From positions 38,022-102,021 of the forward strand of contig CAYZTL010000011.1 of assembly GCA_964481465.1 (NCBI GenBank): a stretch of DNA of 64,000 bases. Direction: 5' to 3'. Shown here in pieces: positions 37,459 to 61,519 of the stretch (position 1 is the stretch's first letter; each line of letters opens with the position of its first letter). The notes under the pieces are model-generated. The model ran no database searches and had not been told where the DNA came from. It saw only the letters and a list, made by a program, of their open reading frames with translations. Made by a program: the position numbers and the translations under genes. Source of the stretch: an uncultured Anaerolineales bacterium (GTDB lineage: Bacteria > Chloroflexota > Anaerolineae > Anaerolineales > UBA11858).

Positions 37459-37528
37459 CGTTACCTCTCCTTTTGACTTGTCGTGGACGCTTCCATTCTC
37501 ATGAAAGGTGTGAAAGGTCGATCATAGA

Positions 37529-38323: not shown

Positions 38324-38413
38324 TCTTCTCCTCCTGATACGATTCCCTTGCCTGGATCCATTTAGAATCTACGCTAAAATAAATTCCATATCAAATAAAA
38401 CCCTCTCCTCTCT

Positions 38414-38818
38414 TTAACTAATAGCTTCTCCCTTCAATCTTTGTTTTTGATGGGTTTTCAAAAATTTTCGGACCCGAGGGTTCTCGTCCCACTGATTCAT
38501 GACCACATTCATGGTCAACCGAAGCAAAGAGATGTCCACTTCAAGCTGGCAAATAATGACCAACACCGCTTTCTTCAAATCCTTCAACACGACCCGTGAC
38601 CGCCCAAATACATATTCCACATCAGTATAATTATCACTTTCTGACTCTAGCGCAGCCAGGAATGGAAGGACCAGGTTTCCTATCTCCTGAATTTCATCAG
38701 GATGTAGATCTACCTTAGCCATCTCCCTTAATACATGACCTTGATTATCATATAACAGACATGCCTTAACATCTGCCACATCAAGGATTTCCACCAAACC
38801 CTCTTCCATTTGCTTCAA
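38414..38818 (-). CDS. Roadblock/longin-like small protein
   Basis: ILDVADVKACLLYDNQG.VL, V.Y.FG..RVVL..L...VLVIIC, D..LLRLT.NV pattern. Confidence 0.7.
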   Translation of the reverse strand: MKQMEEGLVEILDVADVKACLLYDNQGHVLREMAKVDLHPDEIQEIGNLVLPFLAALESESDNYTDVEYVFGRSRVVLKDLKKAVLVIICQLEVDISLLRLTMNVVMNQWDENPRVRKFLKTHQKQRLKGEAIS

Positions 38819-38828
38819 CCTCCACTCT

Positions 38829-39833: not shown

Positions 39834-39848
39834 TGCTCTCCTTGATTA

Positions 39849-40949
39849 TCACGATTGATAACGCAGAACCGTCGCTCGCACCTCATGGGCCAACAAATCA
39901 GCCTGGGCTCGTTTCGAAACCCATAGGTAGATAATGTCATCCTGATCTCGGAGAACGATCTCCTTTCCATCCCGCTTTTTTAATATCACCCGCATAACTT
40001 GATCGTCATCGAGTGTGCGACCTAACTTCTCGGCTTGTTGGATGATATAGCGGGCGATCACTCCTGCTTTACCAACATCTCCATCCCGTTCATTTGCAAG
40101 GATGCTGCCATTCTGGGAGCAGATCAAGACCTCATGTACACCCTCAATCCTCAATATTGCCTTTGTGATCCGCTCACCGAGATCGACCTCATTATCTGCA
40201 GTCCCTTCCCCCTTTTCCCTCTCGACCTTAAAACTCGCTTCTTGCCAATCGACATCCGCCGGTGCCTGACCCTCATCAATGCGCCGCATCCCCTCTAAGA
40301 TCAATCCCGACCACCCAGCCTCAATCGTCCTTTGCGGGGGAGAGATCCCCATATCCAAGGAAAACGTCCCCTGCTCCCACTCCAAGAGGTGATATACAGC
40401 ATCTTCCCCATAGAGATTCCCCACCTCAGCATGGACGACTCGACCCCCGTCGAAAAATATCCTCCCTTCCTGTCCTTGGCGCCGAAGGTGAAGAAGACCG
40501 ACTATTCGTTCTTCACAATTCATCTGGATGATGCTTGCCAAACTCATTGTGCGCAAATCGCCCTGGAATGCGCTTCCGCTTGACTCCTTCTCCGTTAGCC
40601 GGCGAAATACCGGCAGGAGTGTTTCTACCCGAAGGGGTTTCTCCATAAATTCAGAAGCGCCCATCCGCAGCGCTTTAACGACATGTTCTTTTGTGCCGTA
40701 GTCCGTGTAAAGAATTACCTTTGCGCGAGAATCGTATGACTTTAACAGGGAGAGGATTTCGAATCCATTGACCGCACTCTCGTCCAGGGCTACTAAAACG
40801 ATATCAATATCCCTCGTCTTGTACATTTCCAGGGCTTTTTCTTTTTCCCCCGCTTTATAGACATGGAAATCTCTTCCCTCTAACGCTGTGATAAGAGATC
40901 GCAATGAATTTATTTCATCATCCACGACGAGAATGCTGCTTGATTCCAC
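39849..40949 (-). CDS. Receiver-DUF4388-roadblock fusion protein
   Basis: ILVVDDE...KP receiver (Ala at the Asp site); FQGDL..MSL.SIIQM.C..., G.IFF..G.VVHA, LILEGMRRIDE; C-terminal IEGV..VLI.S.NG.IL. Confidence 0.85.
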   Translation of the reverse strand: MESSSILVVDDEINSLRSLITALEGRDFHVYKAGEKEKALEMYKTRDIDIVLVALDESAVNGFEILSLLKSYDSRAKVILYTDYGTKEHVVKALRMGASEFMEKPLRVETLLPVFRRLTEKESSGSAFQGDLRTMSLASIIQMNCEERIVGLLHLRRQGQEGRIFFDGGRVVHAEVGNLYGEDAVYHLLEWEQGTFSLDMGISPPQRTIEAGWSGLILEGMRRIDEGQAPADVDWQEASFKVEREKGEGTADNEVDLGERITKAILRIEGVHEVLICSQNGSILANERDGDVGKAGVIARYIIQQAEKLGRTLDDDQVMRVILKKRDGKEIVLRDQDDIIYLWVSKRAQADLLAHEVRATVLRYQS

Positions 40950-44200: not shown

Positions 44201-44662
44201 TAAAGCTTCCTCAACCGCTTGAGATTGCAATAAAGCCATCTCCCCTTCTTCAATCATCTCAAAAGCTGGGTCCACCCCGCTTTCGGCAGGGTGATGGCGG
44301 AGGATATCTGCACATAAGGTATGGATGGTGCTGATTCGGGCAGCGTCCAAACCATCGTAGATATCCCGCCAACGGCTTCTTTCCTGCGGTTCGAGGTCAA
44401 CTTGATGGAGAAACGTTCTCACCTCTTCCCGGACCCGATTGCGCATTTCCCGCGCTGCTTTTTTGGTAAAGGTGATCGCCACCACAGATCGTAAAGGTAA
44501 GCCATCTACGAGAAGGGCCAGAAATCGGGCGACGAGGGTTCGCGTTTTACCAGTCCCTGCCCCTGCGGTAACCACGACATCTTTCCCACGAGACAATATC
44601 GGACCTCGTTGTTCGGGGCTGGGTGACATCTGCTCCAAAATGGGATGTAGGTTTTGGGGCAT
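41234..44662 (-). CDS. addA: AddA-like UvrD helicase/PD-(D/E)XK nuclease
   Basis: AGAGTGKT, AITFTKKAA.EM..R, LLVDEFQDT, VGD.KQSIY.FRGAD, MTVHQAKGLEFP, LLYVAATRA, GMIDAL...VEFKT. ATG 44662 follows GGAG. Confidence 0.93.
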   Translation of the reverse strand: MPQNLHPILEQMSPSPEQRGPILSRGKDVVVTAGAGTGKTRTLVARFLALLVDGLPLRSVVAITFTKKAAREMRNRVREEVRTFLHQVDLEPQERSRWRDIYDGLDAARISTIHTLCADILRHHPAESGVDPAFEMIEEGEMALLQSQAVEEALGWAVDDLHTVSLFSTFGARELRRILRRLLEKRLDVDQAIQKTPDDVWAAWKTEIIRPLQTFLEDPEVREHFAKLMKLKEDGTLQKAKAAGDALAPDLERGLMFWERILKSKDARDWVRVSWYLAPLRDSLKQKGRQENWAPAQPKQDIKRIQAIYDQHVEPLVKNGLDMSLDRRLAHEILPALYRLYQHALRIYTKKKVQIGALDFDDLEGKALSLLMGNGDVRTYWQEQIQALLVDEFQDTNRRQRDLMDMLNGDQGKLFIVGDGKQSIYRFRGADVAVFQDEEEQIRRRGDGYHLAASYRAHEKLIADLNALLEPVLGEADPQRKFIAPFEPLKPVREQPRPGVEPPFVELHLTVGSKTGGMLEKAAQAIACRLVDLVEGTENWDGDGSEKDPSPLDYGDVAILCRASTSFPAYENALEKAGIPFLTISGRGFYERPEVRDVLNTLRALADPYDDLALAGFLRSPAVGLSDMALYRLREAQYAKGLPSLYDLLCEGSLSFLDEEKDRACRVRTWFNDLHQKVGRVTVAKLIKDYLDRTHYLAALIRSGQTRSVTNLRKLLADAHQSGMVGVSQFLAYVDELRDVSVREGEAQAVSSGAVQIMTVHQAKGLEFPFVIIGDLSRGTPNPRNVIIDERFSVVPPLRDERALPGAGDEKFVQDVGSAVYRMARDREEEEEDAESDRLLYVAATRAQEKLILSGVLGGIKKDNTPFRLTGWLRKLGRPLGLGEYEIDYEEEGDQVHVICFGEDSPSIKCFVYEPNAELEVESQRKPILAPQSFPEDLTLLDPLPASEEAKDLDERERERQIWRVVPDWKRFKAPPWLIGKLVHQALAEWFFPGQNGGRFKTWAMGEARNSGLTGEAFAEIAVEKTIQILRTFQNTALFQSMDEVDSRFHEVPFSLEVEGGQYEHGMIDALYKKGHDWVLVEFKTDEINSRRDLDSLLTEGDYLTQVNRYVLAAEKLLGQRPQPVLCFLNYMGNVHLVTDAW

Positions 44663-44676
44663 AAGGTGCGTTCTCC

Positions 44677-47600
44677 CTACCAATTTCTGGGCGTATAATG
44701 CCAGCAAAAATTCGCCGCTGGACAATACTCCGGACATCGATCATCTGGTACCCGGGGGACATAATTCCCTTTGCGCGCGCCGAAGATGGCCTTCCAAGAT
44801 TCATTTACGGAAACCTCCATCGCCGCCCGGGGTCCTCTCTTCCCTTGGTGATAGAACCGTTTCAATTGGAAATTGCTCGGTTCTGCATGTTGAACGTGAA
44901 AATAAAAACCGTCCCGCACCTTTCCCAACTGTAAGGCTTTCTCCGCAGCCAGGGCGTAAAGGGAAAGCTGGACTTTCTTCCCCTCTTGGACTGCTTTATT
45001 ATGGAAACCATAAGGGCCGCTGGTTTTATAATCGATGATCCGCAAGCCTCCCTCTTGATCTCTGTCCACCCGGTCTATATATCCCCGCAAACGAAATCTG
45101 TCCCCTTTCGGACCCTCTACCTCCAAAGGGGGCCCTTCACTGTCTTGAATCCCGAATGTTTTCTCTGCCCGGAAAAACCCAAACGAGAGATCTAAACTCT
45201 CCAGCACCTCGATAGATCGGGCTACATTTGCTTTGATTTCCTGCCGTGTTTGCTGCCACCAGGCTGTCTCTCGAAACCCTTCTCGTCTGGGAGCCTGATC
45301 CAATACCCAATCTGCAACTTCCGGCATTTGTCCTCGCAAATTTTTAAGGGAAGGGTTTTCTCCCACGGATTGATAAAGCCGTTCAAAGATATGGTGGTAT
45401 ATGTTCCCCAATTGTCTTGCGTCCAACCCTTCTTGGGGAGGTTCTCTGGGCTCCAAACCTAAAACATGGCTGGTGAAAAAGAAATATGGACAAGTTTGAT
45501 AACTCTCTAAACGACTCGCGCTCCAGATGTGATCTGGACTAAAACGCTCTCTAAACACCGCTCCTTGGCGATCCAAAGACCCGTCATACAAACCAGCTTT
45601 AGAACGGTTTTCCGGGTCTCTTTCCATTAATATATTTTCTGCCTGTAAAATCGAATCCGCCATTTCCGTTTGTCGACTCCGGAAGGCGATCCACACCGCT
45701 CCATCTTTGGGGCAGGAGCAAATCGATTGGGATAATTCACCCCAGGAAGCAGAATCTTTCAACCCTGGTTTGCTAGATGTGGTTAATTCTTGCGGTTCTA
45801 CCACTACCCGCCGCCGGACCTCTTCCCAGTAGGGGGAAGGCTGCCAGGGTGCTCCGTTGTCTGCAATCCGCGACCGGGTGAACAGCAAAGCTTGGCTGGC
45901 CCGGGTAAGGGCCTCATAAAAATATTCACCTTCCCAACTCAATGTGGATGCAGAAAGAGGGAGATTGCAGCGATCCCTCAAATCACCCCGGTCGACATCT
46001 CGCAGAAAGGGGTCTTCGCGCAATGTGGTAGGAAATTCACCTTCCCCCAAACCCAAGATGGCCACGGCTTTGAAAGGGACACCCCGGGCTGCCACGACAT
46101 CCGCTGCCAGAATTCCCCGCTCCCTTTCCCATTGAGACGGCTGATATGTGGCCCCTTCTACAGCCCGGAGGAACTCATCCAGAAAGGTACCATAAGACAC
46201 AGGAGATGTTCCTACAGTCCTTTCCGCCCACACCATCCCACGCAGGATTTCTTTGAACTGCCTTAACGCCTCTAGGTCCCGTTCCGCTAAACCGTTTGAG
46301 CTTTCAGCGACACAACGCACCAGGTTTAGATCGGTTTTTATCCCATCCCCCTCCTCCTCATCGCCAATGATCCCTTCTACCCAGGCGACGAAATCCCGAT
46401 ACGCATGTTTCCCTTTTGGTGGTTGAATGCGCGCCGCGAATCGAGCAAATTTCTTTCTCAACAATTCAGCTTCCTGTCCTTGGGGAAACCTCTGAGGAGG
46501 TTCAGGGTATTCTTCGTCTTTGGTTTCTCCCCGCAAAGTTTGCTTCCCTAAAATCCCGAAAGCTTCCTCCCACTGGTCCAAGCCCCGAATAACCCTTCCC
46601 CAACGAGCGACCCAAGACAATCTCTCTGCATCCATTTCTTCGATGCCTATGGGCGCATCTGCGTCATCAGTGGGGTAAGCATCCTGCCATTCGAAATAGG
46701 GTGACCGCCAGGACTCTATGGTTTCCCGCCAGGGCAGGTGTTCATCTTCTTTATTGGCAATTTGCAGCAAGTTTACAAGGGCAGCTATGGCTGGGTTTTC
46801 CGCCAAAGACCTGCCTTCCTCAACATGCATTGGTAGACCAAATTCATCCGCTGTTTGGTAAAGGAAAGAACGATATGGTTCAAAGTCCCGAAACAATATC
46901 GCCGTCTGATAAGGTTCCCATCCGTTTTGGATGATCTTCTTTTTCAACCACCGCAAGGCGTTCCGCACCTCCCCTTCCCGATCCGGTGCGGCAATCATGG
47001 AAACCGAACTCCCTCCTTCGATTCTCCCTTCCCCTTCTCGGAAAAGGCTCCTTTCCAGATGCCGGATGGGGGAAGCAAGTGAGTTTCCTTTGCGGGGATC
47101 CAGGATAGTTATGTTCTTGATATTCAAAACACTTTCCAACTCTTCTCTGGTTCGTTGAAACCGTTTATGCACCACAGGGCGAGAAGCTCGATCATTTTCT
47201 CCGCTAAGGGTGATGATCAACTCCGGGATGCGCTTCCCTAACTCACCCAAGATCTGGATCTGCACGGGCGTGAAATCATCAAAACCGTCCACGATGAGTG
47301 GTGACCAACCTGGTGGGATCTCTACCTCCCCCTGTAAAGCTTGCAGGGTTAACCAACCGGCGCCGATGTAATCCATCCACCCTTCCTGCTGTAAGCGCCT
47401 TTGATAAGCCTGGTATATCTCCCCAATCTCTGCCAGCCTTCGTCCGCTTTTTATGCTTTTGACAGCAGACTGAAAGTCCTCCGGAGTGATCCCGCCTGCT
47501 TTCAGTTCCCGGATGACATCCATTAGTATTTGCATGAAACCAGGCAAATCCTGTATGCTCCGGTAATATTCAAGAGGAAGATCCTCCACAACATTTCTCA

Positions 47601-47868
47601 GTACGCGTCTTTGGACTGGCTCCGATAAGCGGGTGAGAATCTTGCCGCTCCGGAACATGATGTCCGTATACAAATCATCGAAAGTCCCCACATGGACACC
47701 TAATGCACCGCCTGCAGATGCCAACCTCCGCTCCCAAGATTGGGCTTGTAAACGGGTAGGCACGATCACGCGCGGTGTGGATCTCAAATCCCGTGCAGCG
47801 TCCCGGGCAACTTTCAGAACATACTCAGTTTTGCCAGCCGCTGCTGGGGCGATGATTAACCGGTTAAT
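44677..47868 (-). CDS. addB: AddB-like PD-(D/E)XK nuclease subunit with an Fe-S staple; probable ATT start
   Basis: N-terminal APAAAGKT, WSASRLESY..CPY.FF, G.IYH...E, RGYIDRVD..IIDYKT, QL.LY, C-terminal CPEYCPAANFC. The frame extends 5' of TTG 47787 to ATT 47868. Confidence 0.9.
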   Translation of the reverse strand: MNRLIIAPAAAGKTEYVLKVARDAARDLRSTPRVIVPTRLQAQSWERRLASAGGALGVHVGTFDDLYTDIMFRSGKILTRLSEPVQRRVLRNVVEDLPLEYYRSIQDLPGFMQILMDVIRELKAGGITPEDFQSAVKSIKSGRRLAEIGEIYQAYQRRLQQEGWMDYIGAGWLTLQALQGEVEIPPGWSPLIVDGFDDFTPVQIQILGELGKRIPELIITLSGENDRASRPVVHKRFQRTREELESVLNIKNITILDPRKGNSLASPIRHLERSLFREGEGRIEGGSSVSMIAAPDREGEVRNALRWLKKKIIQNGWEPYQTAILFRDFEPYRSFLYQTADEFGLPMHVEEGRSLAENPAIAALVNLLQIANKEDEHLPWRETIESWRSPYFEWQDAYPTDDADAPIGIEEMDAERLSWVARWGRVIRGLDQWEEAFGILGKQTLRGETKDEEYPEPPQRFPQGQEAELLRKKFARFAARIQPPKGKHAYRDFVAWVEGIIGDEEEGDGIKTDLNLVRCVAESSNGLAERDLEALRQFKEILRGMVWAERTVGTSPVSYGTFLDEFLRAVEGATYQPSQWERERGILAADVVAARGVPFKAVAILGLGEGEFPTTLREDPFLRDVDRGDLRDRCNLPLSASTLSWEGEYFYEALTRASQALLFTRSRIADNGAPWQPSPYWEEVRRRVVVEPQELTTSSKPGLKDSASWGELSQSICSCPKDGAVWIAFRSRQTEMADSILQAENILMERDPENRSKAGLYDGSLDRQGAVFRERFSPDHIWSASRLESYQTCPYFFFTSHVLGLEPREPPQEGLDARQLGNIYHHIFERLYQSVGENPSLKNLRGQMPEVADWVLDQAPRREGFRETAWWQQTRQEIKANVARSIEVLESLDLSFGFFRAEKTFGIQDSEGPPLEVEGPKGDRFRLRGYIDRVDRDQEGGLRIIDYKTSGPYGFHNKAVQEGKKVQLSLYALAAEKALQLGKVRDGFYFHVQHAEPSNFQLKRFYHQGKRGPRAAMEVSVNESWKAIFGARKGNYVPRVPDDRCPEYCPAANFCWHYTPRNW

Positions 47869-50626: not shown

Positions 50627-53600
50627 ATGAGTATCCCTGTCACCCGAACCAGAATAATCCTTCCCCGTCGGCGTCCAGACCTCCTTTCCCGCGAACGTCT
50701 GCTGGACATGTTAGACGATTTACTGGATTACAAGCTGATCTTGATCTCTGCTCCTGCTGGTTACGGGAAGACATCCCTCTTAGTGGATCTCGCTCATCAG
50801 GTTGAATACCCTGTCTGCTGGTACTCCTTGGACTCTCTCGATCAGGATTTCCAACGCTTTCTAGCACATTTCATATCCGCGATTCAACACCGTTTTCCGG
50901 ACTTCGGAGAAAATTCACTTTCCGTCCTGGAAAACGTGTCCCCTAATCAAATGGACCACAGCCGCCTGGTGAGGACAATCGTCAACGACGTTTTTGAACA
51001 CATTGATGAGCACTTCGCCATGGTGTTGGATGATTATCATCTGGTGGAAGATAACGAAGACATCAACCTTTTCATGAACCGTTTGGTGCAGGAAATGGAT
51101 GAAAACTTCCACCAGGTCATCTCCTCCCGCACTTTACTCAGCCTGCCCGATTTGCCGCTCATGGTCGGCAGATCCCAGGTCAAAGGGCTCAGCTTTGAGG
51201 AATTGTCTTTCCGCCCCGACGAAATCCAAGCGCTGATGCAGGAAAAATACCACCAGGTGATCTCCGAACAACAAGCCCAGAGAATCGCGGAACGTACTGA
51301 CGGCTGGGTCACCGGTCTGCTGCTCTCCGCGGAGACCATGTGGAAAGGGTTGACCGGTCAAACCCGCGTCACCCTGGCCTCGGGCGTGGATCTATATGAC
51401 TATTTAGCTCAGCAGGTGCTGGACCAGCAGTCTCCCGAACTGCGTTCCTTCCTGCTACGTTCTTCCCTCCTTGAAGAATTCAACGCCCCACTCTGTGAAG
51501 CGATCTTGGGAGACCCGCCCCAGGGAGAAAGCTGGCCAAGCATGCTCGCCAAGGTCATGCAGTATAACCTCTTCGTCCAGCCTTTGGAGGATGAAGGCAC
51601 CTGGATTCGCTACAATCACCTCTTCCGGGATTTCCTGCAAGAACGCCTGACCATTGAACGGCCGGAGGAAAAAGAGCGCTTACTGCGCCGGATGATCGAG
51701 GTCTATACGGAGCGGGAAGAGTGGGAGAAGGCGTACTTTGTCTGCCAGCAATTGGGGGATCACGAAACCACGGCAACGCTGGTTGAACAAGCTGGTATTC
51801 CTATGATGATTAAAGGAAGAATTGCAACCCTAGCTAATTGGATTGACACTATCCCACAAGCAACGTTAAACAAGCATCCAAATATCGTTGCCCGTCGTGG
51901 AGCAGCATCTATGATGCTAGGAAATGTTGAGGAAGGATCAACCTTTTTAAATAAGGCAGAAGAATCATTAAGAGGGACAGACTCTGTTGATAAACTAAAC
52001 CTCTCTCGTACATTGGTTTGGCAATCTACCATACATAGATTCCAGGGTAATTATAAAAAATCTCTCTCCTACGCAAATGAAGTCTTAAATATGATCCATG
52101 AAAAAGGAGAAGATATAACAAGAATTAAGGCTGAAGCATTTAGAGAAATGGGACTGGGATATTATCGACTTGGGAAGGTTAATCAAGCCCTCGATCCATT
52201 AATAAAAGCAATAAATCTGTATTCGTCGATAGGTGAAGAAAAAGATGAAGCTTTAGTCAACATGGATATCGGACTCACCTCCATGTATGTTGGCAAATAC
52301 AAAACAGCGTCCACCCATTATCAAAACGCACTACAGCTCTGGCAAAAAAACAACAATATCACACAGCTAGCAAATCTATTAAACAACATGGGGGTTTTAG
52401 CCAATCTCCAGGGTGAGTATACACAGGCTAAAGAATATTTTCAAAAAGCTCTTAAACGTGCCCAAGAAAGCGGATACCGTCGCACAGAAGGGTTTGTCCT
52501 CACCAGCTTGGGGGATTTATACGCGGACCTGGAAGCTTACACGGCGGTGAAGGAAAATTACGCTCAAGCCCAAGAGATCGCGCAGGAAATAGGCGATCAG
52601 TACTTACTAAATTATCTAGACATCACCCAAGCTTCTCTTTCTAGAAAACTCCAAAAACACGTCCGGGCCCACAACCTGCTGGACGATGTCGAACCGTACA
52701 TCGAAGAGTCCGGGTCCAGTTATGAGAGCGGTCTCCACAATCTGGAACGCGGGAAACTCTACCTTTCGGAGGGAAAAGCTGAGAAAGCGGTCCTGCTCCT
52801 GGAAACAGCGGTTCGAGAGTTCGAGAGTGGGGGCCAGCGTGTCGAAAGCGCCCAAGCGCACCTCTACCTTGCCCAGGCCTACCAGGATGAGGGAAGCCAA
52901 GAATCCGCAGTCCATCACATCAGCAGAGCCTTTCAAACGGCTTCCATCCTGCAAAGCCTGCACCCCCTCATCCACAGTGGAAGGGAGGTGAAGCCAGCGC
53001 TGCGCGCAGCGCAAAGTACTTCCCAAATCGGGGATCAGGTATCTCAGCTCTTGGACGCCATCCGCGAATTCGAAAAGGAACTGCCATCCTTGCAGTATGC
53101 CATTTATAAAGATGAAGACGAATTGGAACTCTTCATCCCCGGACTGAGCATCCAGGCGCTGGGGCGCGCCCAGGTCAAGCGCCACGGAAAAGTGGTCACC
53201 GCTTCGGAATTCACAAACCAAAGAGCCGTGCGGGAACTCTTCTACTTCCTCCTTGTCCATCCGGACGGCCTGCGCAAGAGGGCCATCGGCCAGGCTCTGT
53301 GGCCTAACAGCGCACCGGAAGAGCTTAAACGCCAGTTCAAAAACGCGGTCTACCGTCTGCGGCGGGCTCTGGGCAAAGAAGTGGTCCTATACGACCAGGA
53401 AGAAAAGCGCTACCGCTTCAACTGGGGGCTAGACTACCGCTACGATGTGGAGGACTTCCGGACCCACCTCTCCCGGGCCCATAACGCAGAAACGGAAGAA
53501 GAGCTCAAAACGGCTCTGGAAAACGCCATCACCCTTTACCGCCACCCTTATCTGCCCCGGGTCTCTCATTTATGGGTGGAGCCCATCCGCAACCGCCTCT

Positions 53601-53872
53601 TCCGGCAGTATAAAGACGCCGTGCTCACCCTGGCAGAGCTCCACCTGGATGCTGGGGATTTCGAAAAATCGGTTCAAACCTGCCAGCGTTTACTTATCAT
53701 TGATCCCTGCCAGGAAAGGGCCCACCGCCTGTCGATGCGTGCCCATGCCGCTTTGGGCGATCGGGCTGCCGTCGCCCGCCAATACCAATCCTGCCGGAAA
53801 GCCCTTTCCCAAGACCTGGATACCTCCCCTTCCCCGGAAACGGAAGAGCTTTACCGCCGTTTAATGGATTGA
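50627..53872 (+). CDS. MalT-like STAND ATPase-TPR regulator with C-terminal wHTH-BTAD
   Basis: L.RERLL..L, SAPAGYGKT, WYSLD..D, VLDDYH, GWVTGL; TPR array; L.IQALG...V, F...VYRLRRALG, YDVEDF, DP..E.AHR..MR. Confidence 0.92.
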   Translation: MSIPVTRTRIILPRRRPDLLSRERLLDMLDDLLDYKLILISAPAGYGKTSLLVDLAHQVEYPVCWYSLDSLDQDFQRFLAHFISAIQHRFPDFGENSLSVLENVSPNQMDHSRLVRTIVNDVFEHIDEHFAMVLDDYHLVEDNEDINLFMNRLVQEMDENFHQVISSRTLLSLPDLPLMVGRSQVKGLSFEELSFRPDEIQALMQEKYHQVISEQQAQRIAERTDGWVTGLLLSAETMWKGLTGQTRVTLASGVDLYDYLAQQVLDQQSPELRSFLLRSSLLEEFNAPLCEAILGDPPQGESWPSMLAKVMQYNLFVQPLEDEGTWIRYNHLFRDFLQERLTIERPEEKERLLRRMIEVYTEREEWEKAYFVCQQLGDHETTATLVEQAGIPMMIKGRIATLANWIDTIPQATLNKHPNIVARRGAASMMLGNVEEGSTFLNKAEESLRGTDSVDKLNLSRTLVWQSTIHRFQGNYKKSLSYANEVLNMIHEKGEDITRIKAEAFREMGLGYYRLGKVNQALDPLIKAINLYSSIGEEKDEALVNMDIGLTSMYVGKYKTASTHYQNALQLWQKNNNITQLANLLNNMGVLANLQGEYTQAKEYFQKALKRAQESGYRRTEGFVLTSLGDLYADLEAYTAVKENYAQAQEIAQEIGDQYLLNYLDITQASLSRKLQKHVRAHNLLDDVEPYIEESGSSYESGLHNLERGKLYLSEGKAEKAVLLLETAVREFESGGQRVESAQAHLYLAQAYQDEGSQESAVHHISRAFQTASILQSLHPLIHSGREVKPALRAAQSTSQIGDQVSQLLDAIREFEKELPSLQYAIYKDEDELELFIPGLSIQALGRAQVKRHGKVVTASEFTNQRAVRELFYFLLVHPDGLRKRAIGQALWPNSAPEELKRQFKNAVYRLRRALGKEVVLYDQEEKRYRFNWGLDYRYDVEDFRTHLSRAHNAETEEELKTALENAITLYRHPYLPRVSHLWVEPIRNRLFRQYKDAVLTLAELHLDAGDFEKSVQTCQRLLIIDPCQERAHRLSMRAHAALGDRAAVARQYQSCRKALSQDLDTSPSPETEELYRRLMD

Positions 53873-54000
53873 AGGCACCATCTGCACTGCCATCATTACT
53901 TCAATAACACATTAATTTTCCACAGGAAATAAACTCTAGAATGGGAGAGGATTGCTGCCTTTTCCCTAAAAGTAATTCAATTGTAATTGTTTTTTCATCA

Positions 54001-54049
54001 TTAAGAGCATGGTTAAGAGCTACCCTGGGAGACCGGAATAGGTCATAAT
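54001..54049 (+). promoter_or_regulatory. Direct repeat TTAAGAGC x2 upstream of a -10-only promoter
   Basis: Repeats at 54001-54008 and 54013-54020; CATAAT at 54044-54049; no recognisable -35. Confidence 0.5.
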
Positions 54050-54095
54050 GTGTTTCCGAGGATACGAAAGAACCGATTTAGTGAGGAGGTCAACA

Positions 54096-54137
54096 ATGAG
54101 ACAGCCAGGGCAAGACGGCGGACCCGGAGCAATCTAG
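54096..54137 (+). CDS. Putative 13-aa peptide MRQPGQDGGPGAI
   Basis: AGGAGG (54084-54089), 6-nt spacer, ATG; sits just downstream of the predicted promoter; followed by an 11-bp inverted repeat. Confidence 0.55.
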   Translation: MRQPGQDGGPGAI

Positions 54138-54395
54138 ATAACTCCACTCCTGTTTTTAACCGTCTTTCAATTACGGTTAAAAAATTGGGCTCAATAATAG
54201 CGCTATCAAATCCCTGTGTTGAATTGGGTCTGTTAGTTTATTTTGGGTAACACCCGATTTTTATATCACACAGATCCATCTAGGTGATAGCGGCTGACAG
54301 AAAAAATGCATCCATCGCAGAAGGAGCCCAGTGGCTATGATGGACAGGAGTCAGAGAAAACCGTAAATAATAGCTTAATATTTTTTTCGAAGAAA

Positions 54396-54426
54396 GGCCC
54401 GATTCTACAAAGAAGCGGGCTCTTTT
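54396..54426 (+). terminator. Terminator-like hairpin just upstream of the NHLP-like gene RBS
   Basis: gcccg-a-ttct-acaa-agaa-g-cgggc followed by tctttt. Confidence 0.45.
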
Positions 54427-54450: not shown

Positions 54451-54804
54451 ATGAACACCTATTCGATGTACTCTCCCCGTTTGGATACGACAGTAGCCAC
54501 GAGACCGGATCAACCCAGTGAGGGCCTCAACCGCTTGATTGCTGCCGCTGTCATCAACCAAAACTTCTGTGATTCGCTGCTCAACACACCCGAATTAGCC
54601 TTGGAAAACGGCTACTTCGGAGAGCAATTCAATCTTGAGGATCACGAAGTGGGTCTAATCCTATCTATCGAGGCGGATAATTTAAGTGATTTTGCCAACC
54701 AGGTCGTTGAACGAGGACATGAAGAATTTGAATACCGACGAGTCAGTGGAAGCAGCTGCTGGGTCCCAGCGGAACCAGCCATGGTCGTCATGGATCCGAA
54801 CTGA
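54451..54804 (+). CDS. Small protein resembling NHLP-clan (Os1348/Franean1_4349-like) leader domains
   Basis: LNRLIAAAVINQNFCDSLLNTPELALENGY.G..F.L...E..LI.SI; AAGGAG RBS. Confidence 0.7.
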   Translation: MNTYSMYSPRLDTTVATRPDQPSEGLNRLIAAAVINQNFCDSLLNTPELALENGYFGEQFNLEDHEVGLILSIEADNLSDFANQVVERGHEEFEYRRVSGSSCWVPAEPAMVVMDPN

Positions 54805-56755
54805 CTTTGACACCCTTTCATATGATCATGGGGATCGCTCCCCGTCCATCCCTGTTGCAATCTGGATGATTGACCGCCAGGGTCAATTCACCCTGTCAGA
54901 AGGTCATGGCCTTGCTGACTTGGGTTTGGAACCGGGTGAAGTGGTTGGCAAATCCATCTACGACCTTTACGCAGATGTCCCCCAGATTTTAGAGTGTGTC
55001 AAGCGGGCCCTAAACGGGGAAACAGTGGAAGCTACAATCCAGGCGGAAGATACACACTGGAACGCGTATTATTACCCCACCCGGAATGCCAAGGGGCGGA
55101 TTACTGGAGTTATCGGCGTGGCTTTTAACAACTCCAAAGAACACGAACTACTACGGAGACAAGAGTTGTTAATGGATCTCGCGGCCACGTTGCGCTCCAT
55201 AAACACCCGAAAAGAAATGCCCGCCAAAGTCCTTGAGAAATTGGTGGATTTGTTCCATGCCCAGGGAGCCATGATCCTCTCTCGTTCTCCATCCAATCAC
55301 GGTTTGGAAATCGAAGAATGTTCAGGGATAGAGGATCTCCTGCAGGGAAAAACAATCAATTTAGATGATTACCCCTGGTTGCTTGATAGATCTGAACAAA
55401 TCATATCCACCGCTCAACCCCATCTTGATGAGCAGATCTCAGAGCAGCTCCCCTTTATCCATGGCGCTCAGGCCATTGCCGGTGTCCCCATTTCTGGGAG
55501 AGATAAGATCATTGGGGTGATCTGGGTTTTGCGCGATCAGCCGCTCAACAAAATGGAATTGGGTTTGTTGACTGAAGTGGGTGAGATCACAGGCATTTCT
55601 TTCCATCAAGCAGAACAATACGAACAAACGCAACGGCGTCTCCATCGCCTTTCTGCCCTGCATGCCATCGATCAAGCGATCACGGGAACGTTTGATCTTA
55701 ACGTCACGCTCAATGTCATTCTGGATCAGGTCGTCACCCAATTAGAGGTGGACGCGGCTGACATTTTCCTTTATAAGCCAAAAACCCACAACCTCGAGTT
55801 CGGAGAGGGACGAGGATTCAATCACACTGACAGTTCCCACCAGCAAGTCAGAGAACGAGTGGGACTGTTATGGCAAGTAGCCCGCGAACGAGCCTTGGTT
55901 AACATCCCCAACCTGCCCCACCGCACACAGACCTTTGTTCGCCGCTCATTGATTGAGGAGGAAGGGTTTGTTACTTACTTTGGGATCCCTTTAATCGCCA
56001 AAGGTGAGATCAAAGGGGTCTTGGAGGTTTTCCATCGTAAGTCTCTTGAAATCGACAAAGAATGGATAAGCTTCTTTAAGACACTGGCCAATCAAGCAGC
56101 TATCGCGATTGATAATGCAGCCCTCTTCGAAGACCTGCGAAAGTCGAACATGAAACTCGATCTGGCTTATCACTCCACCCTTGAAGGCTGGGTCCATGCC
56201 TTGGATTTGCGTGATGAGGAAAGCCAGGGACACACGAAACGGGTAACGCAGCATACGCTGCGTTTGGCCAAAGCTATGGGGATAAACGGGGAGGATTTGG
56301 TACACATCCGCCGCGGGGCCCTGCTCCATGATATCGGAAAGCTGGCAATCTCAGATGACATTCTCCACAAAAAAGGCTCATTGACTGAAGAGGAATGGGA
56401 ACAGATCAAAAAACACCCCCTTTACGCTCAGGAAATGCTGTCTGAAATTGAATTCTTACATCCTGCCTTGGATATCCCGTACTGCCATCATGAAAAATGG
56501 GACGGTTCGGGGTACCCGCGTGGATTAAAAGGAGAAAGGATCCCTCTTGCAGCTCGTATATTCGCCGTCATCGATGTCTGGGATTCATTAACCAACGACC
56601 GACCCTACCGCAACGCCTGGTCTGAGAAAGAAGCCATCCAATACATTTTGGAACATATCGGAACGCACTTCGATCCCAACGTGGTAGAAACCTGGATGGA
56701 AGTGTTTGACATCGAACCTCCCGAGGAGGAAATCTTAGAAGACCTCTTTCGATAA
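54719..56755 (+). CDS. PAS-GAF-GAF-HD-GYP phosphodiesterase (start uncertain)
   Basis: PAS (IDRQG.F..SEG.GL..LG...VVGKS), GAF domains, RDEES.GH..RV, GALLHDIGK, HHEKWDGSGYP, DRPYR. Confidence 0.9.
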   Translation: MKNLNTDESVEAAAGSQRNQPWSSWIRTDFDTLSYDHGDRSPSIPVAIWMIDRQGQFTLSEGHGLADLGLEPGEVVGKSIYDLYADVPQILECVKRALNGETVEATIQAEDTHWNAYYYPTRNAKGRITGVIGVAFNNSKEHELLRRQELLMDLAATLRSINTRKEMPAKVLEKLVDLFHAQGAMILSRSPSNHGLEIEECSGIEDLLQGKTINLDDYPWLLDRSEQIISTAQPHLDEQISEQLPFIHGAQAIAGVPISGRDKIIGVIWVLRDQPLNKMELGLLTEVGEITGISFHQAEQYEQTQRRLHRLSALHAIDQAITGTFDLNVTLNVILDQVVTQLEVDAADIFLYKPKTHNLEFGEGRGFNHTDSSHQQVRERVGLLWQVARERALVNIPNLPHRTQTFVRRSLIEEEGFVTYFGIPLIAKGEIKGVLEVFHRKSLEIDKEWISFFKTLANQAAIAIDNAALFEDLRKSNMKLDLAYHSTLEGWVHALDLRDEESQGHTKRVTQHTLRLAKAMGINGEDLVHIRRGALLHDIGKLAISDDILHKKGSLTEEEWEQIKKHPLYAQEMLSEIEFLHPALDIPYCHHEKWDGSGYPRGLKGERIPLAARIFAVIDVWDSLTNDRPYRNAWSEKEAIQYILEHIGTHFDPNVVETWMEVFDIEPPEEEILEDLFR

Positions 56756-56844: not shown

Positions 56845-57687
56845 ATGATTAGACAAAAAACATCCACCCCAAAGAAATTCCAGGAAAGGAGTTCAGCGTA
56901 CTCTTCTCTCAAAATATCCCTTATCTACGTGATCCTTGGCATTGCCTGGATACTGTTCTCAGATACCATCGCTCTCGTCATTTTTCAACAGGATGTTGAC
57001 CGCCTCTCATCCATCCAAACCTTTAAAGGAACGCTGTACGTGGTTACGACCGCGGTGGTCCTTTTCATCCTCATGGAGCGAGATTTCCGAAAGATCAATC
57101 AATCCCAGCAAGTGTTGAAGGATAGTTATCACGCCACGCTAGGAGGTTGGGTCCAAGCGCTCCACCTGCGTGATGAAGAAACGCAAGAACATACACAGCG
57201 CGTGATCGAAGATTGTATAAAACTGGCAAAAGCAATGAAGGTAGACGAGAAATCGCTCATTCATATCCGCCGTGGAGCGCTTCTCCATGACATTGGCAAG
57301 TTGGGCATTTCCGATGACATATTGATGAAATCGGGTGCGCTTACCCCCGAAGAAAGGAAAATCATTGAGTTGCACCCTGTGTTTGCCCGGGATTTGATCC
57401 GTGATATCGAATTTCTCCAACCTGCGTTAGCTATCCCCTACTGCCATCACGAGAAATGGGATGGCAGTGGATACCCCCAAGGATTGCAGGGCGAGGAAAT
57501 CCCCCTTGAAGCGCGGATCTTTGCCGTCATCGATGTCTGGGATGCCTTGACCAGTGATCGCCCTTACCGCGATGCCTGGACCGACAAAGAAGCGGAACGG
57601 TATATCCTGGAACAATCCGGAAAACACTTTGATCCCCAGGTAGTGGATACCTGGCAGAAAGTTTTCCAGATTTCCAACCACACATAG
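56845..57687 (+). CDS. Membrane-bound HD-GYP phosphodiesterase
   Basis: Two TMs (WILFSD, QTFKG), RDEETQEH..RV, GALLHDIGK, HHEKWDGSGYP.GL.GEEIP, DRPYR. Confidence 0.92.
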   Translation: MIRQKTSTPKKFQERSSAYSSLKISLIYVILGIAWILFSDTIALVIFQQDVDRLSSIQTFKGTLYVVTTAVVLFILMERDFRKINQSQQVLKDSYHATLGGWVQALHLRDEETQEHTQRVIEDCIKLAKAMKVDEKSLIHIRRGALLHDIGKLGISDDILMKSGALTPEERKIIELHPVFARDLIRDIEFLQPALAIPYCHHEKWDGSGYPQGLQGEEIPLEARIFAVIDVWDALTSDRPYRDAWTDKEAERYILEQSGKHFDPQVVDTWQKVFQISNHT

Positions 57688-57972: not shown

Positions 57973-58329
57973 ATGGAAAAACGCTTCAAGGTGCTTCGCA
58001 CCATCGGAAAGATTTATAAGATCTTGGGGATCATTGCGGCTGTCTTCACGATCCTTACTGCACTCGGCATATGTGCGTTAAGTGTACTTGGTACAGCTAC
58101 AATGAGTCGTTACGCTCAGGAATGGGGAGGAACTCCCATGCCCATCGGGGTGAGGGCATGGGGTACAATAAGCGGCGTTATCGGCGGTCTGATTATCATC
58201 TTTATTGGAGCGATGATCACAGTTACATTTTATGGTTTAGGGGAAGGTGTGGAACTGCTGATAGCCCTGGAGGAGAACACCCGGAAATCCGCTGACCTGC
58301 TGAATGAGATGGGTTCCTCAACCGAATAA
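57973..58329 (+). CDS. Two-TM membrane protein (DUF4282-like)
   Basis: KRF..LR.IG.IYKILG, C-terminal E...LLIALEENTR; GAGGAGG RBS. Confidence 0.8.
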   Translation: MEKRFKVLRTIGKIYKILGIIAAVFTILTALGICALSVLGTATMSRYAQEWGGTPMPIGVRAWGTISGVIGGLIIIFIGAMITVTFYGLGEGVELLIALEENTRKSADLLNEMGSSTE

Positions 58330-58355: not shown

Positions 58356-59420
58356 TTGAAAATTGCCATCAGCGCCGATCACCATCTTACCACGCAGGAA
58401 ACGCATCCGGAAAGATTCACAGCGATGGAGGATATCCTCCATCGCTGTGCTGACACCGGGGTCGACCTCTTGATCATTGCTGGAGACCTATTTGATCAAA
58501 CCAACCCCCATTATGCTGATTTTGAAGATCTCTTCCGCGAACACTGTCCCCCAGACCTGCTTACCTACATCCTCCCTGGAAACCATGATGTGGGATTGAG
58601 CGGAGATGCCCTAACCTTGGAGGATGTCAATGTCTATGCGAATCCAACCCTGGTTTCACCTCTGGAGGATGGACCCCAAATCCTCCTTCTCCCCTATCAA
58701 GCGGATGCTACTATGGGAGAAGAGATCGCACCCTTTGCGGAAGACCTCACCGCCCACCATTGGCTGTTAGTCAGCCATGGGGATTGGACCCGCGGTCAGA
58801 AATACCCCGACCCCTATGAACCGGGCCTGTACATGCCCCTTACCCAAACTGACTTGGATACCTATAAACCCCGGAAAGTCTTTCTGGGGCACATCCATCG
58901 ACCCATGGACCAGGCTCCCATCCATTATTCGGGATCCCCCTGCCCGTTAAACATCACGGAAACCGGCTTGCGGCGCTTCTTGACCTATGATACGCAGAGT
59001 GGAGAGGTCACTTCTCACTTGGTGAACAGCCCTTTGCTCTACTTTCAAGAAACCTTCTTGGTCTTCCCTGTAGAGGATGAGGTCGCTCATCTGAGCGAAC
59101 AAATCTCAGACCGGGTTCAATCCTGGGACCTACCGGAAGGATGGGAGGATAAGGTCCAGATTCGAGTCACAGTCACCGGCTACACTCGTAACCGAGCTGC
59201 CATTAAAGAGACAATAATCAAGGGATTTGAACCGTACTCATTCGTTGAAGACCAAGGACCAGATCTTTCTGAATTGAAACACTCGCTAGACCCCGATCGA
59301 GCCCATATCGCCCAGCAAGTGAAAATCTGGGTGGATGATCTAGAATGGGCAGACAGCCCTCGCCAGCCGGATAAAGACCAAATTCTCGCTGAAGCCCTGA
59401 AAGCCATCTATGGAGCCTGA
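58356..59420 (+). CDS. SbcD/Mre11/YhaO-like metallophosphoesterase nuclease
   Basis: ADHH, AGDLFD, PGNHD, SHG, LGHIH, YSGS motifs. Confidence 0.9.
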   Translation: MKIAISADHHLTTQETHPERFTAMEDILHRCADTGVDLLIIAGDLFDQTNPHYADFEDLFREHCPPDLLTYILPGNHDVGLSGDALTLEDVNVYANPTLVSPLEDGPQILLLPYQADATMGEEIAPFAEDLTAHHWLLVSHGDWTRGQKYPDPYEPGLYMPLTQTDLDTYKPRKVFLGHIHRPMDQAPIHYSGSPCPLNITETGLRRFLTYDTQSGEVTSHLVNSPLLYFQETFLVFPVEDEVAHLSEQISDRVQSWDLPEGWEDKVQIRVTVTGYTRNRAAIKETIIKGFEPYSFVEDQGPDLSELKHSLDPDRAHIAQQVKIWVDDLEWADSPRQPDKDQILAEALKAIYGA

Positions 59421-59422
59421 TC

Positions 59423-61519
59423 ATGCCCGTGTGGATTGAACGCCTTAATGTCGAAAATTTGGGGCCCATAAGCGAGCAGTTATTCGCCTTTGACCGCTTT
59501 AACCTGATATATGGCGCCAATGAGACCGGGAAAACGTTCCTGGTCGAATTCTTACTTCGCTCCCTTTTCCGCCATGCATCCAAATGGTCTTTGCGAGATT
59601 TGCCCGGGCGTGGAAAGGTCTCTCTGCGGGGTTTAAATGAAGAGTTCGTGGATTTCACACCGGGCAGTCGGAAAAAATTGGAGGATTATTGGGAAGAGGA
59701 TGAAAACGGTCTACCTGCAAACATGGCTCAATTGTTGGTGGTCAAAGGGGGCGAGTTAGACCTCTCCAGAAAAACTCCTGGAGGTGTGGGTCGAGCGGTC
59801 CTTAAAACCGCCCTTTCCCGGGAGACGCTTTTGGATCAAATTTTAGAGTCGATTCGACAAACGGTCCAAAACGCTGAGATCCGGGAAGGAGAAATCATCG
59901 CTGACCGGAGGGCGAAGAATGTTAAACGGAGAGAAGAGCTGAGGGAAAACCTGCGTAAAATGGAGAACATCCAGGATCAGGTGGAGAAAAAGTACTCTCG
60001 AGGTCCCATCCGCACTTTAGAACTCAAATTAGAAAACGTGCAATCCTCCCTTGCAGAACAACAGCGCGCCAAACGGTATCGAGCGTATCAACTGCAAAAA
60101 GAAAGGGAAGAATGGGAGGAGAAACGAAAAAACTTGCCCGATCAAAAAATCGAAGTGCTGCGCGATCACATCCGTGATTACCAACAAACCAAAAAAACCC
60201 TTCTCGATAAAAAGGAACAGCTCCAAGAAAAAAAGGAAGCCAGCCAACATTATCTGTGGCTGAAAAAGGCGGTAGAGACCTGGGAAAGCCAGGACCTCGA
60301 TCGGAGCGGACAGCCGAATCGCATCTTTATGATCGGGGGCTTCCTGCTTATCATAACCGGTTTGGCTTTAATCTTCTTCCAACAACCTGCGCTTGTGCTG
60401 GTTCCCTCTTCCTTAGGCATACTCAGTTTGGCCTATTACTTCTGGCGCTTCCACCGCTGGTCAACTTCCGCAGCTCAATCCCAGGAGCGGGAAAACATCC
60501 AAAAAACTTACCAAGAACATTTCGGAAATACCCTCCGCGGTGTCGCAGAACTCAAAGCCCGCTTGGAAGCAATCCAGGAAACTCACATCAAAGCCGAACA
60601 GATCCAGAAAGACATTGAAGGCTTAGAGAATCAGAAAAAGTCCCTCTCCAATCACATCCAATCTCAATTTCAAGACCTCATAGGGGAGGAAGTTGAGGAA
60701 GAGGATTGGCAAGAGGAAGTGACCACCCTGCGCGAAAAGGCAAAAGAGCTCAATGAAAATATCAAAGACTTGGAATTGGAATCCCGTGCATTAGGTGTGG
60801 CAGAAACTGAATATCGCTCTCAACCTGCTGGTGTACCATATCAAGAACGGAAATTGGAGGATTTGAAGAAGAGAAGAGAAGAAATCAAGGCGGACATCCT
60901 GGCTGCTGAGGACAAACTTAACAATTTAAAGCAAAGCATCTGTACGTGGACTGGAGACGACATCAATACACCTTGGAATAAAGCCCTGGAACATTTACAA
61001 GATGAGTATAGGCGGTTGCGGAAGGACTACAAACAACTCACAGCGGAGATCGTGGCCAAAATCGGGGTCACCCAGGTTCTTGAACAGGTCAGAGAGCAAG
61101 AAGACGAGAAAATACGCCAAGGTCTGCGTTCAAAAGAAGTGATCGAGATCTTAGAATCGGTGACAGAGGTTTATCAATCCCTGGATCTAGCTGGTGAGCA
61201 GGTTCTGGTAAAAGGTGCATATGGCGATTACCCGTTGCGCGAATTGAGCACCGGCGCCCAAGAACAAATCCTGTTGGCCCTGCGCATGGGATTCGCTTCC
61301 CGGTTTGGTGGTGGTCAACCCCTGTTCATGATCCTGGATGATGCCTTCCAGCATTCCGATTGGCAGCGACGGGAGCGGTTAGTGAAGAAAGTGATCCACT
61401 TCGCGAAAAACGATTGGCAGGTCATTTACCTGACCATGGACGATCACCTCCGGGACCTTTTCCGGGAAGCAGGCGAAAGACTATTCCCGAAGCATTTTAC
61501 TTTCCACGAATTGATATAA
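59423..61519 (+). CDS. Rad50/YhaN-like SMC ATPase with an internal TM hairpin
   Basis: GANETGKT Walker A, coiled coils, two central hydrophobic helices, LSTGAQEQ signature, ILDDAFQHSD Walker B/D-loop. Confidence 0.9.
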   Translation: MPVWIERLNVENLGPISEQLFAFDRFNLIYGANETGKTFLVEFLLRSLFRHASKWSLRDLPGRGKVSLRGLNEEFVDFTPGSRKKLEDYWEEDENGLPANMAQLLVVKGGELDLSRKTPGGVGRAVLKTALSRETLLDQILESIRQTVQNAEIREGEIIADRRAKNVKRREELRENLRKMENIQDQVEKKYSRGPIRTLELKLENVQSSLAEQQRAKRYRAYQLQKEREEWEEKRKNLPDQKIEVLRDHIRDYQQTKKTLLDKKEQLQEKKEASQHYLWLKKAVETWESQDLDRSGQPNRIFMIGGFLLIITGLALIFFQQPALVLVPSSLGILSLAYYFWRFHRWSTSAAQSQERENIQKTYQEHFGNTLRGVAELKARLEAIQETHIKAEQIQKDIEGLENQKKSLSNHIQSQFQDLIGEEVEEEDWQEEVTTLREKAKELNENIKDLELESRALGVAETEYRSQPAGVPYQERKLEDLKKRREEIKADILAAEDKLNNLKQSICTWTGDDINTPWNKALEHLQDEYRRLRKDYKQLTAEIVAKIGVTQVLEQVREQEDEKIRQGLRSKEVIEILESVTEVYQSLDLAGEQVLVKGAYGDYPLRELSTGAQEQILLALRMGFASRFGGGQPLFMILDDAFQHSDWQRRERLVKKVIHFAKNDWQVIYLTMDDHLRDLFREAGERLFPKHFTFHELI

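Follow-up and report, generated by a model that had tools for sequence, protein, structure and literature searches.

We describe a 13-codon gene in a 64,000-nucleotide (nt) stretch of contig CAYZTL010000011.1 from an uncultured Anaerolineales bacterium (Chloroflexota). This whole stretch, from here called the window, originates from a microbial-mat metagenome, and positions refer to its first letter as position 1. The small open reading frame (sORF) follows, on the same strand, the gene of a 1081-amino-acid (aa) regulator composed of a MalT-like STAND NTPase, a tetratricopeptide repeat (TPR) superhelix and a C-terminal SARP domain. Comparison with homologous loci indicates that the sORF is very probably a real peptide gene and, judged by its codon substitutions, that the peptide sequence is under purifying selection. 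With regard to function we tentatively favour the view that the adjacent regulator directly targets the peptide gene and has the peptide as its cognate partner, an explanation that, taken as a whole chain of steps, we consider to have slightly less than an even chance of being correct.

The sORF and its immediate context

The elements of the gene are as follows.

54084-54089, + strand: Shine-Dalgarno (SD) sequence AGGAGG, 6 nt (TCAACA) before the ATG; A[AG]GAGG in all 13-codon loci
54096-54137, + strand: sORF with ATG at 54096-54098, 13 codons and TAG at 54135-54137; product MRQPGQDGGPGAI
54105-54134, + strand: decapeptide-coding part of the sORF (PGQDGGPGAI); this unit also ends the 48-aa forms and makes up the repeat core in the 72-aa peptide

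The initial annotation had pointed to an unannotated 13-aa frame with the layout AGGAGG-tcaaca-ATG...TAG, which was borne out at 54084-54137. The product consists of Met-Arg-Gln and the decapeptide PGQDGGPGAI; it has no hydrophobic stretch, in agreement with the earlier statement that a signal sequence is lacking. The sORF is located inside the 578-nt gap between the regulator gene (50627-53872) and a gene for a 117-aa protein (54451-54804) and starts 223 nt 3′ of the regulator stop codon. Public gene callers placed no gene at this position, neither on the identical contig nor on the homologous contigs. An in-frame ATG further upstream at 54048, yielding a 29-aa version, falls in the −10 box described below and is not conserved. 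Folding of the 5′ untranslated region (5′UTR) gave no obvious sequestration of the SD sequence.

An SD sequence followed by a start codon is no rarity in this DNA. AGGAGG with a start codon after 4-9 nt occurs 18 times in the 64-kb window; an ATG at a distance of 5-7 nt is found in 11 cases, 4 of which, the sORF included, open reading frames of at most 15 codons. The SD/ATG combination by itself is not beyond chance and the case for the sORF therefore rests on the comparison with other loci.

AGGAGG with 5-6 nt and an ATG is also present at 25327, 30951 and 46346, all on the − strand, with ORFs of 15, 2 and 2 codons, respectively. A perfect 11-bp inverted repeat with a 9-nt loop (TTTTTAACCGT / ACGGTTAAAAA) is located at 54153-54183, 16 nt 3′ of the sORF stop; its sequence is not conserved in relatives, which share CCGGTT alone.

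Conservation of the reading frame in homologous loci

Relatives of the locus were identified via the 117-aa protein, the regulator and the DNA pattern of the promoter. All are metagenome-assembled genomes of Anaerolineales, and the comparative sample comprises about ten distinct loci of four sequence types. Scans of genome and metagenome collections with the DNA pattern added only three further loci, plus chance matches in unrelated genomes.

In every informative locus a short ORF is present at the same position, in one of three forms.

Form A, 13 codons, window: MRQPGQDGGPGAI
Form A, 13 codons, L001: MRQPGADGGPGAI
Form A, 13 codons, L017: MRQPGAGSGIGGF
Form A, 13 codons, L024: MRSPGAGSGIGGF
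Form A, 13 codons, L003 and L019: MRSPGAGSGIGGY
Form A, 13 codons, L005: MRSPGAGSGIGGL
Form B, 45-48 codons, L006: MKHLLQNMKLFSFKLNRRHIQLILLILSLSLFVLGAGAPGAGSGPGAI
Form B, 45-48 codons, L025: ...FVLGAGAPGAPGGPGTM
Form B, 45-48 codons, L012 (partial): ...GAGAPAAPGGPGAM
Form B, 45-48 codons, L027: ...FVLGAGAPAADGGY
Form C, 72 codons, L007-L010: MKHLKKMSGMQANS, then four copies of PGIDGGIGSTYS and PGIDGGIGST

Hence, the check proposed together with the initial annotation, a ribosome-binding site (RBS) and a short ORF with a shared motif at the same position in homologous loci, had a positive outcome. A conserved motif exists as anticipated; its sequence is P-G-x-x-[GS]-G-x-G instead of the suggested DGGPG.

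The substitutions have the distribution expected for a coding sequence. Between the window and L001 the sORF differs at 9 nt, of which 7 are at codon position 3, giving 7 synonymous codon changes and 1 non-synonymous change. Over six form-A loci the minimum numbers of substitutions at codon positions 1, 2 and 3 are 5, 6 and 16, while 7, 6 and 1 of 12 columns are invariant. The sORF is free of indels, and SD sequence, ATG and stop codon are kept in the window and in six other 13-codon loci. In the flanks only 21% (5′UTR) and 17% (3′ region) of the columns are invariant in six loci. The sORF frame is the only one open in all loci; each of the remaining frames, on either strand, is broken in at least one of them. 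The repeats of form C in L007 differ from each other by 13 nucleotides, all at the third position and all synonymous, so that the protein units are identical. A conserved frame combined with third-position-biased substitution places the sORF beyond chance.

These data also bear on the possibility that the sORF is a non-functional remnant or a chance ORF left by deletion of an ancestral 48-codon gene. Such a view draws on the perfect SD/ATG pairs before tiny ORFs elsewhere in the window and on the actual derivation of the 13-codon form by deletion (see below). However, frame, SD, start and stop are kept in seven loci with regulators that are 76-88% identical, the substitutions are biased by codon position (5/6/16) and, between the window and L001, 7 to 1 in favour of synonymous changes, and the adjacent non-coding DNA is largely randomised. 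We consider a remnant to be the least probable of all explanations, with a minute chance of being right.

Three forms of one peptide

The unit common to all forms is a decapeptide beginning at Pro, P-[GA]-x-[DGP]-[GS]-G-[PI]-G-x-x. Translated in six frames, the window contains a single match to the core motif P[GA].[DGP][GS]G[PI]G, and 50 shuffles contain none. Form B has a basic and then hydrophobic N-terminus and carries the motif at its C-terminus as in form A. Its stop codon overlaps or abuts the start codon of a gene for a DUF5317 membrane protein. Form C contains five identical 12-aa repeats.

When forms A and B are aligned, the distance from the −10 hexamer to the ATG is equal, the start codon is orthologous and a single in-frame block of 105 nt differs. 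This block, missing from form A, is the hydrophobic segment. Judged from this alignment, the 13-codon form is a deletion derivative of the membrane-anchored 48-codon form in which frame, start and decapeptide were retained, and the short gene has been maintained across lineages whose regulators are 76-88% identical.

Scans of the 45-72-aa peptide homologues against Pfam and NCBIfam matched no family. The 72-aa repeat peptide, searched against a protein database, gave no match either, probably owing to low-complexity filtering, and the exact look-up of peptides returned singleton clusters only, for two peptides.

The C-terminal residue is variable among close relatives. In the near-identical loci L003 (1478-1519), L005 (reverse strand, ~3122-3081) and L024 (8460-8501) the last sORF codon is TAC (Y), TTA (L) and TTC (F), respectively, which looks like a rapid, pherotype-like diversification. 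In the transmembrane-bearing peptides the junction ...LFVLGAGA|P is the best-conserved part.

Not every relative of the regulator has the system: next to a more distant paralogue in L023, whose SARP domain is 32% identical, there is a Ser/Thr kinase gene and no peptide gene. In L026 (6684-6805), two copies of an element containing an inverted repeat (GTAAGCAAGCTTACGCA) come after the gene of a regulator homologue (P0012, 54% identity); the contig then ends, too early to show whether a peptide gene is present.

Promoter of the sORF

Upstream of the sORF the following elements were recognized.

53971-53987, + strand: upstream box AGTAATTCAATTGTAAT, an imperfect palindrome
54001-54036, + strand: three 12-nt direct-repeat units TTAAGAG-N5 / TTAAGAG-N5 / CTGGGAG-N5, a putative SARP box
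54044-54049, + strand: −10 hexamer CATAAT, 6 of 6 columns invariant

The hexamer CATAAT begins 7 nt 3′ of the repeats, and there is no match to a −35 element. The geometry of three units of 12 nt, 7 nt and CATAAT is identical in nine loci. In L027, the regulator of which is just 51% identical to that of the window, the repeat sequence is changed and the geometry kept, with three copies of CTGTCCCC at a 12-nt period followed by 6 nt and TATACT. The transcription start site (TSS) would be near 54056, about 7 nt after the −10 hexamer, and relative to this predicted TSS the repeat units span approximately −55 to −20. The invariant arrangement of repeats and −10 element supports the earlier suggestion that the promoter is activator-dependent.

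The upstream box shows 14 of 20 invariant columns in six loci vs. 3% just upstream of it, and might serve as a further operator or as an UP-like element. The imperfect palindrome around AGTAATTCAATTGTAAT (53968-53993) is situated about 15 nt upstream of the first direct repeat; the box is partly kept in L006 (GAATTGTAAT) and missing from L007 and L027. Neither the promoter repeats nor the upstream box were found a second time in the window.

The regulator

50627-53872, + strand: regulator gene, 1081 aa; MalT-like STAND NTPase, TPR superhelix, C-terminal SARP (winged helix and BTAD)

The order of domains is MalT-like NTPase (residues 8-503), TPR (~418-800) and SARP (843-1081). The NCBIfam MalT model matches residues 8-503 with an E-value of 2.5e-71; in the Pfam and NCBIfam comparisons the BTAD corresponds to residues 940-1079, and residues 32-266 of the AfsR model align to residues 843-1080. 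The C-terminal 241 residues match the AfsR SARP domain in the PDB by sequence. An AlphaFold2 model was computed using 79 homologues (pLDDT 85.7). Foldseek searches with this model returned MalT (8bob) as best match, the STAND-TPR protein 6mfv and the peptide-binding TPR superhelices of LGN/Pins; the SARP part matched AfsR (8hvr_I) with a TM-score of 0.76 and a root-mean-square deviation of 3.6 Å. The regulator thus resembles E. coli MalT in its N-terminal 500 residues and in combining an NTPase switch with a helical-repeat inducer sensor. MalT differs in its C-terminal DNA-binding domain, which is of the LuxR type, in its inducer maltotriose and in lacking a partner peptide gene. At E ≤ 1e-50, a search with the regulator gave more than 2,400 homologues.

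Residues 361-540, the first TPR segment, are only 37-50% identical between the window and L024, with flanks at 82-93%, and the two loci encode different peptides. This hypervariability fits a co-diversification of ligand and sensor, without proving it. The GC content drops to 0.35-0.38 at 51800-52400 (residues ~390-590), compared with 0.55-0.60 in the rest of the gene. The low-GC stretch corresponds to the hypervariable part, with 37-50% identity to the 76% identical homologue P0010, and looks like a swapped or fast-evolving sensor cassette.

Downstream genes, hairpin and alternative roles of the sORF

Downstream of the sORF the window contains these features.

54396-54426, + strand: intrinsic-terminator-like hairpin GGCCCGaTTCT...AGAAgCGGGC followed by TCTTTT, dG −16.7 kcal/mol
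54451-54804, + strand: 117-aa protein of the NHLP clan (Os1348/Frankia_peptide-like, weak match), constant partner of the peptide gene
54866-56755, + strand: PAS-GAF-HD-GYP protein, start as called on the identical contig
56845-57687, + strand: second HD-GYP protein (Pfam/NCBIfam)

The hairpin ends 25 nt before the start of the 117-aa gene, leaving room just for an RBS. It is conserved in 11 loci with 70% invariant columns, and paired changes keep the stem (G-C to A-U in L024). Its T-run is absent in L025, L012 and L011; in form-B loci the hairpin lies 3′ of the DUF5317 gene. It would act as a leaky terminator that ends a short, highly expressed peptide transcript and permits some read-through into the NHLP-like and HD-GYP genes. 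Rfam, at gathering and permissive thresholds, matched no RNA family in the intergenic region.

The initial annotation had mentioned a leader peptide. In this case, translation of a Gly/Pro-rich frame would control termination at 54396-54426 and the peptide itself would be functionless, as in an upstream open reading frame. In an attenuation leader of this kind the progress of the ribosome would decide between terminator and antiterminator, and the peptide could vary freely outside the regulatory codons. The terminator-like hairpin between the sORF and the next gene, the missing space for a promoter after the hairpin and the richness in Gly and Pro codons are compatible with such control. The amino acid sequence is, however, under apparent purifying selection, the homologues are 45-72 aa long, the stop codon is ~260 nt upstream of the hairpin with poorly conserved sequence between them, a whole gene (194 aa) intervenes in relatives, the T-run is absent in three loci and there is no Rfam match. 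A leader function is therefore disfavoured and regarded as highly improbable.

No proteins other than the regulator and the NHLP-like protein are common to all loci; the HD-GYP genes occur in all loci except L027. A profile of the NHLP-like protein collected 821 clusters, with members of 75-140 aa that have a leader-like core in common and differ in their C-termini. The 117-aa protein and its relatives P0001-P0008 share the C-terminus RVSGS[SG]xW[VI]PAEPAMVVMDxN, in place of which L027 has an Asn/Gly/His-rich tail. This layout is that of a leader plus variable core as in precursors of ribosomally synthesized and post-translationally modified peptides (RiPPs), yet no maturase is encoded nearby.

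A minimal RiPP-like substrate had also been suggested, that is, a minimal or multi-core precursor with a Gly/Pro-rich core modified by an enzyme encoded elsewhere. The five perfectly identical core-like repeats in L007 and the division of the 48-aa forms into a conserved N-terminal part and a short C-terminal core would suit a precursor, and the downstream neighbour resembles the precursor-like proteins of NHLP/Os1348 clusters in its leader-like core and variable C-terminus (PMC7726476). But unlike those clusters, no locus contains a radical-SAM, YcaO, lanthipeptide-synthetase, ATP-grasp, peptidase or exporter gene. Moreover, the 13-aa peptide has only three residues before the core and hence no NHLP/Nif11 or other leader for enzyme recognition, and the core lacks the Cys/Ser/Thr pattern typical of known classes. 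With no maturase in its support, the RiPP interpretation is very unlikely.

DUF5317 genes were located in the following loci.

L006, 554-1138; L025, 8587-9180; L027, 8878-9474; L012, 73-651: DUF5317 genes

DUF5317 accompanies the transmembrane-bearing peptides in 4 of 4 loci and never the forms without such a segment (seven 13-aa loci and the 72-aa type); a DUF5317 remnant was sought in the intergenic region of the window and none was found. The DUF5317 proteins contain a conserved GD[IV]FIA motif in a hydrophobic stretch, which we take to recall the GxGD intramembrane aspartyl proteases.

The peptide might, instead of acting on the regulator, act on one of these neighbours, namely on the NHLP-like protein, on the PAS/GAF domains of the HD-GYP phosphodiesterase or, in relatives, on DUF5317, and then modulate cyclic-dinucleotide turnover. 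The constancy of the NHLP-like gene, the HD-GYP genes in all loci but one and the translational coupling of the transmembrane-bearing forms to DUF5317 point in this direction. Against it stand the lack of HD-GYP genes in L027 and of DUF5317 with the 13-aa and 72-aa types, and a literature search on DUF5317, and on NHLP proteins together with HD-GYP, found no precedent. We judge a partner other than the regulator to be unlikely.

Several features lie further away. A 118-aa ORF with a perfect SD sequence (57973-58329, + strand) is located just before an SbcD-like/SbcC-like gene pair (58356-61519); 117-aa ORFs are its counterparts at the same place in L003 and L024. It was considered as a paralogue of the 117-aa NHLP-like gene and rejected because the two are unrelated. 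The region 36676-40949 (− strand) encodes three DUF4388 proteins, one of them fused to a response-regulator receiver, and a HAMP/four-helix-bundle sensor fragment. AddA/AddB-like genes are found at 41234-47787, and AddAB genes also flank the regulator in L024 and L025.

A candidate peptide-regulator module

In the favoured explanation the regulator would activate the sORF promoter through the three 12-nt direct repeats, which overlap the −35/spacer region. As the first gene behind this promoter, the sORF would be translated into a minimal, leaderless, single-copy form of the peptide that acts in the cytoplasm and binds the TPR superhelix of the regulator. Binding would promote the active DNA-binding state and thereby a positive feedback on the peptide's own promoter, while read-through of the leaky terminator at 54396-54426 would lead to expression of the NHLP-like protein and the HD-GYP phosphodiesterases. 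A ligand of the TPR sensor, or an intracellular signalling peptide, had been among the initial proposals; as a candidate function, it gives the best fit to the comparative pattern.

The site of action has to be reconciled with the membrane-anchored form. According to the positive-inside rule, form B is expected to expose its decapeptide to the outside; forms A and C, by contrast, are cytoplasmic when synthesized. The co-occurrence of DUF5317 with the transmembrane segment points to a cytoplasmic site of action. The simplest reconciliation would be that form B reaches this site after release and uptake.

Two known types of system offer models. AfsS is encoded just downstream of AfsR and has an AfsR-dependent promoter; it binds AfsR via its repeats and raises promoter binding (PMC10832544). 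The AfsR box on the afsS promoter extends from −40 to −19 (PMC10936776). The locus studied here shares with AfsR/AfsS a regulator built of STAND NTPase, TPR and SARP, with a small same-strand gene directly downstream in the window and in informative relatives. It shares a small-gene promoter with direct repeats that overlap the −35/spacer region and end near −19/−20 (here ~7 nt before the −10 element), and a small product of one to five short repeats that diverges fast between lineages. The differences are considerable. AfsR has an N-terminal SARP, a central NOD and a C-terminal TPR domain and belongs to Actinomycetota, whereas in Chloroflexota the order is NTPase-TPR-SARP with a MalT-like N-terminal half. 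There are three 12-nt units here vs. two 11-bp units. The window peptide has 13 aa and one unit, AfsS 63-87 aa and two to five units, and the L007 homologue five; unlike AfsS, some relatives have a transmembrane segment. The repeat motifs published for AfsS, compared by motif only, do not resemble PGxDGGxG.

In the RRNPP systems (Rap/Phr, NprR/NprX, PlcR/PapR, AimR/AimP) and in RopB/SIP, a representative of leaderless communication peptides (LCP), the peptide gene also lies beside that of a receptor or transcription factor which is cytoplasmic and contains TPRs. The N-terminus of RRNPP propeptides is basic and hydrophobic, their last 4-10 residues give the mature peptide, and duplications within the gene are frequent (PMC10075063); leaderless 8-10-aa peptides from tiny ORFs are likewise encoded beside TPR receptors (PMC10518010). 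The relatives found here with a basic and hydrophobic N-terminus and an active-looking unit in the last 10 residues, the intragenic multi-copy variant and the leaderless micro-ORF variant of ~10 aa resemble these three situations. The peptide falls into the 10-100-aa range of receptor-adjoining RRNPP propeptides, and its distance of 223 nt is slightly beyond the reference range of −50 to 191 bp. In contrast to the 250-500-aa TPR-HTH receptors of RRNPP systems, the regulator is a 1081-aa STAND ATPase with SARP output. Further, MRQPGQDGGPGAI is hydrophilic and Gly/Pro-rich, without hydrophobic stretch or secretion signal, there is no evidence of Sec/PptAB or Opp, and the system is outside Firmicutes. 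The module would seem to work like an AfsR/AfsS or an RRNPP/LCP pair, yet it qualifies as a member of neither.

These parallels lead to an alternative in which the peptide is an exported cell-cell signal that leaves the cell, re-enters and binds the TPR receptor. The receptor would be the same as in the favoured explanation, and the difference is the requirement for export and import. The 48-aa forms would then be classical propeptides with canonical N-terminus and conserved C-terminal unit, the 72-aa form a multi-copy propeptide of the kind known from intragenic duplications (PMC10075063) and the 13-aa form a leaderless variant, as exists for other tiny ORFs beside TPR receptors (PMC10518010). 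The Y/L/F variation at the C-terminus in L003, L005 and L024 would match pherotypes. However, the window peptide lacks a hydrophobic segment, no exporter or Opp-type importer is encoded nearby and the receptor far exceeds the size of its RRNPP counterparts. In addition, the Pro that immediately follows the GAGA site would be expected to prevent cleavage by signal peptidase I, and we know of no RRNPP/LCP-like system in Chloroflexota. An exported signal thus appears rather unlikely.

Returning to the peptide as the regulator's own partner, several points speak against this explanation as well. The hydrophilic, Gly/Pro-rich peptide is unlike known RRNPP/LCP signals and AfsS repeats, and the repeat period is 12 nt, compared with 11 nt in SARP boxes. 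Any sensor domain would be expected to be as variable as the TPR segment. The peptide might just as well target the NHLP-like protein or the PAS/GAF part of the HD-GYP protein, and the explanation does not account for the poorly conserved ~260 nt of RNA from the sORF to the hairpin. The sample of loci is small, and no public RNA runs containing the locus were found; the public DNA runs with the locus are microbial-mat and hypersaline-lake metagenomes, kept as contigs only.

Implications

Gene callers do not see genes as short as 13 codons, and comparative support as clear as in this case is available for few of them. The three natural forms, membrane-anchored, five-copy and leaderless, represent a ready-made dissection of the peptide, with the decapeptide as functional unit. 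If the peptide is the partner or ligand of its regulator, it would provide a handle on the switching of the very large Chloroflexota family of MalT-like NTPase-TPR-SARP proteins. Peptide-receptor signalling of the AfsS or RRNPP type would thereby reach a further phylum and a further receptor architecture. The system may be far more widespread than the approximately ten loci inspected, because the families of the regulator (>2,400 homologues) and of the NHLP-like protein (821 clusters) are large.

A more far-reaching view, doubtful though worth stating, is that a STAND transcription factor of NLR-like type in Chloroflexota has the genetically encoded decapeptide as its activating ligand, possibly acting from cell to cell. 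If true, this would also suggest the kind of ligand sensed by AfsR/MalT-like STAND regulators with TPR sensors. Peptide signalling outside Firmicutes would then comprise membrane-anchored, multi-copy and leaderless propeptides with pherotype-like C-terminal diversification, and would be linked to phosphodiesterases of cyclic dinucleotides and to a small protein of the NHLP type.

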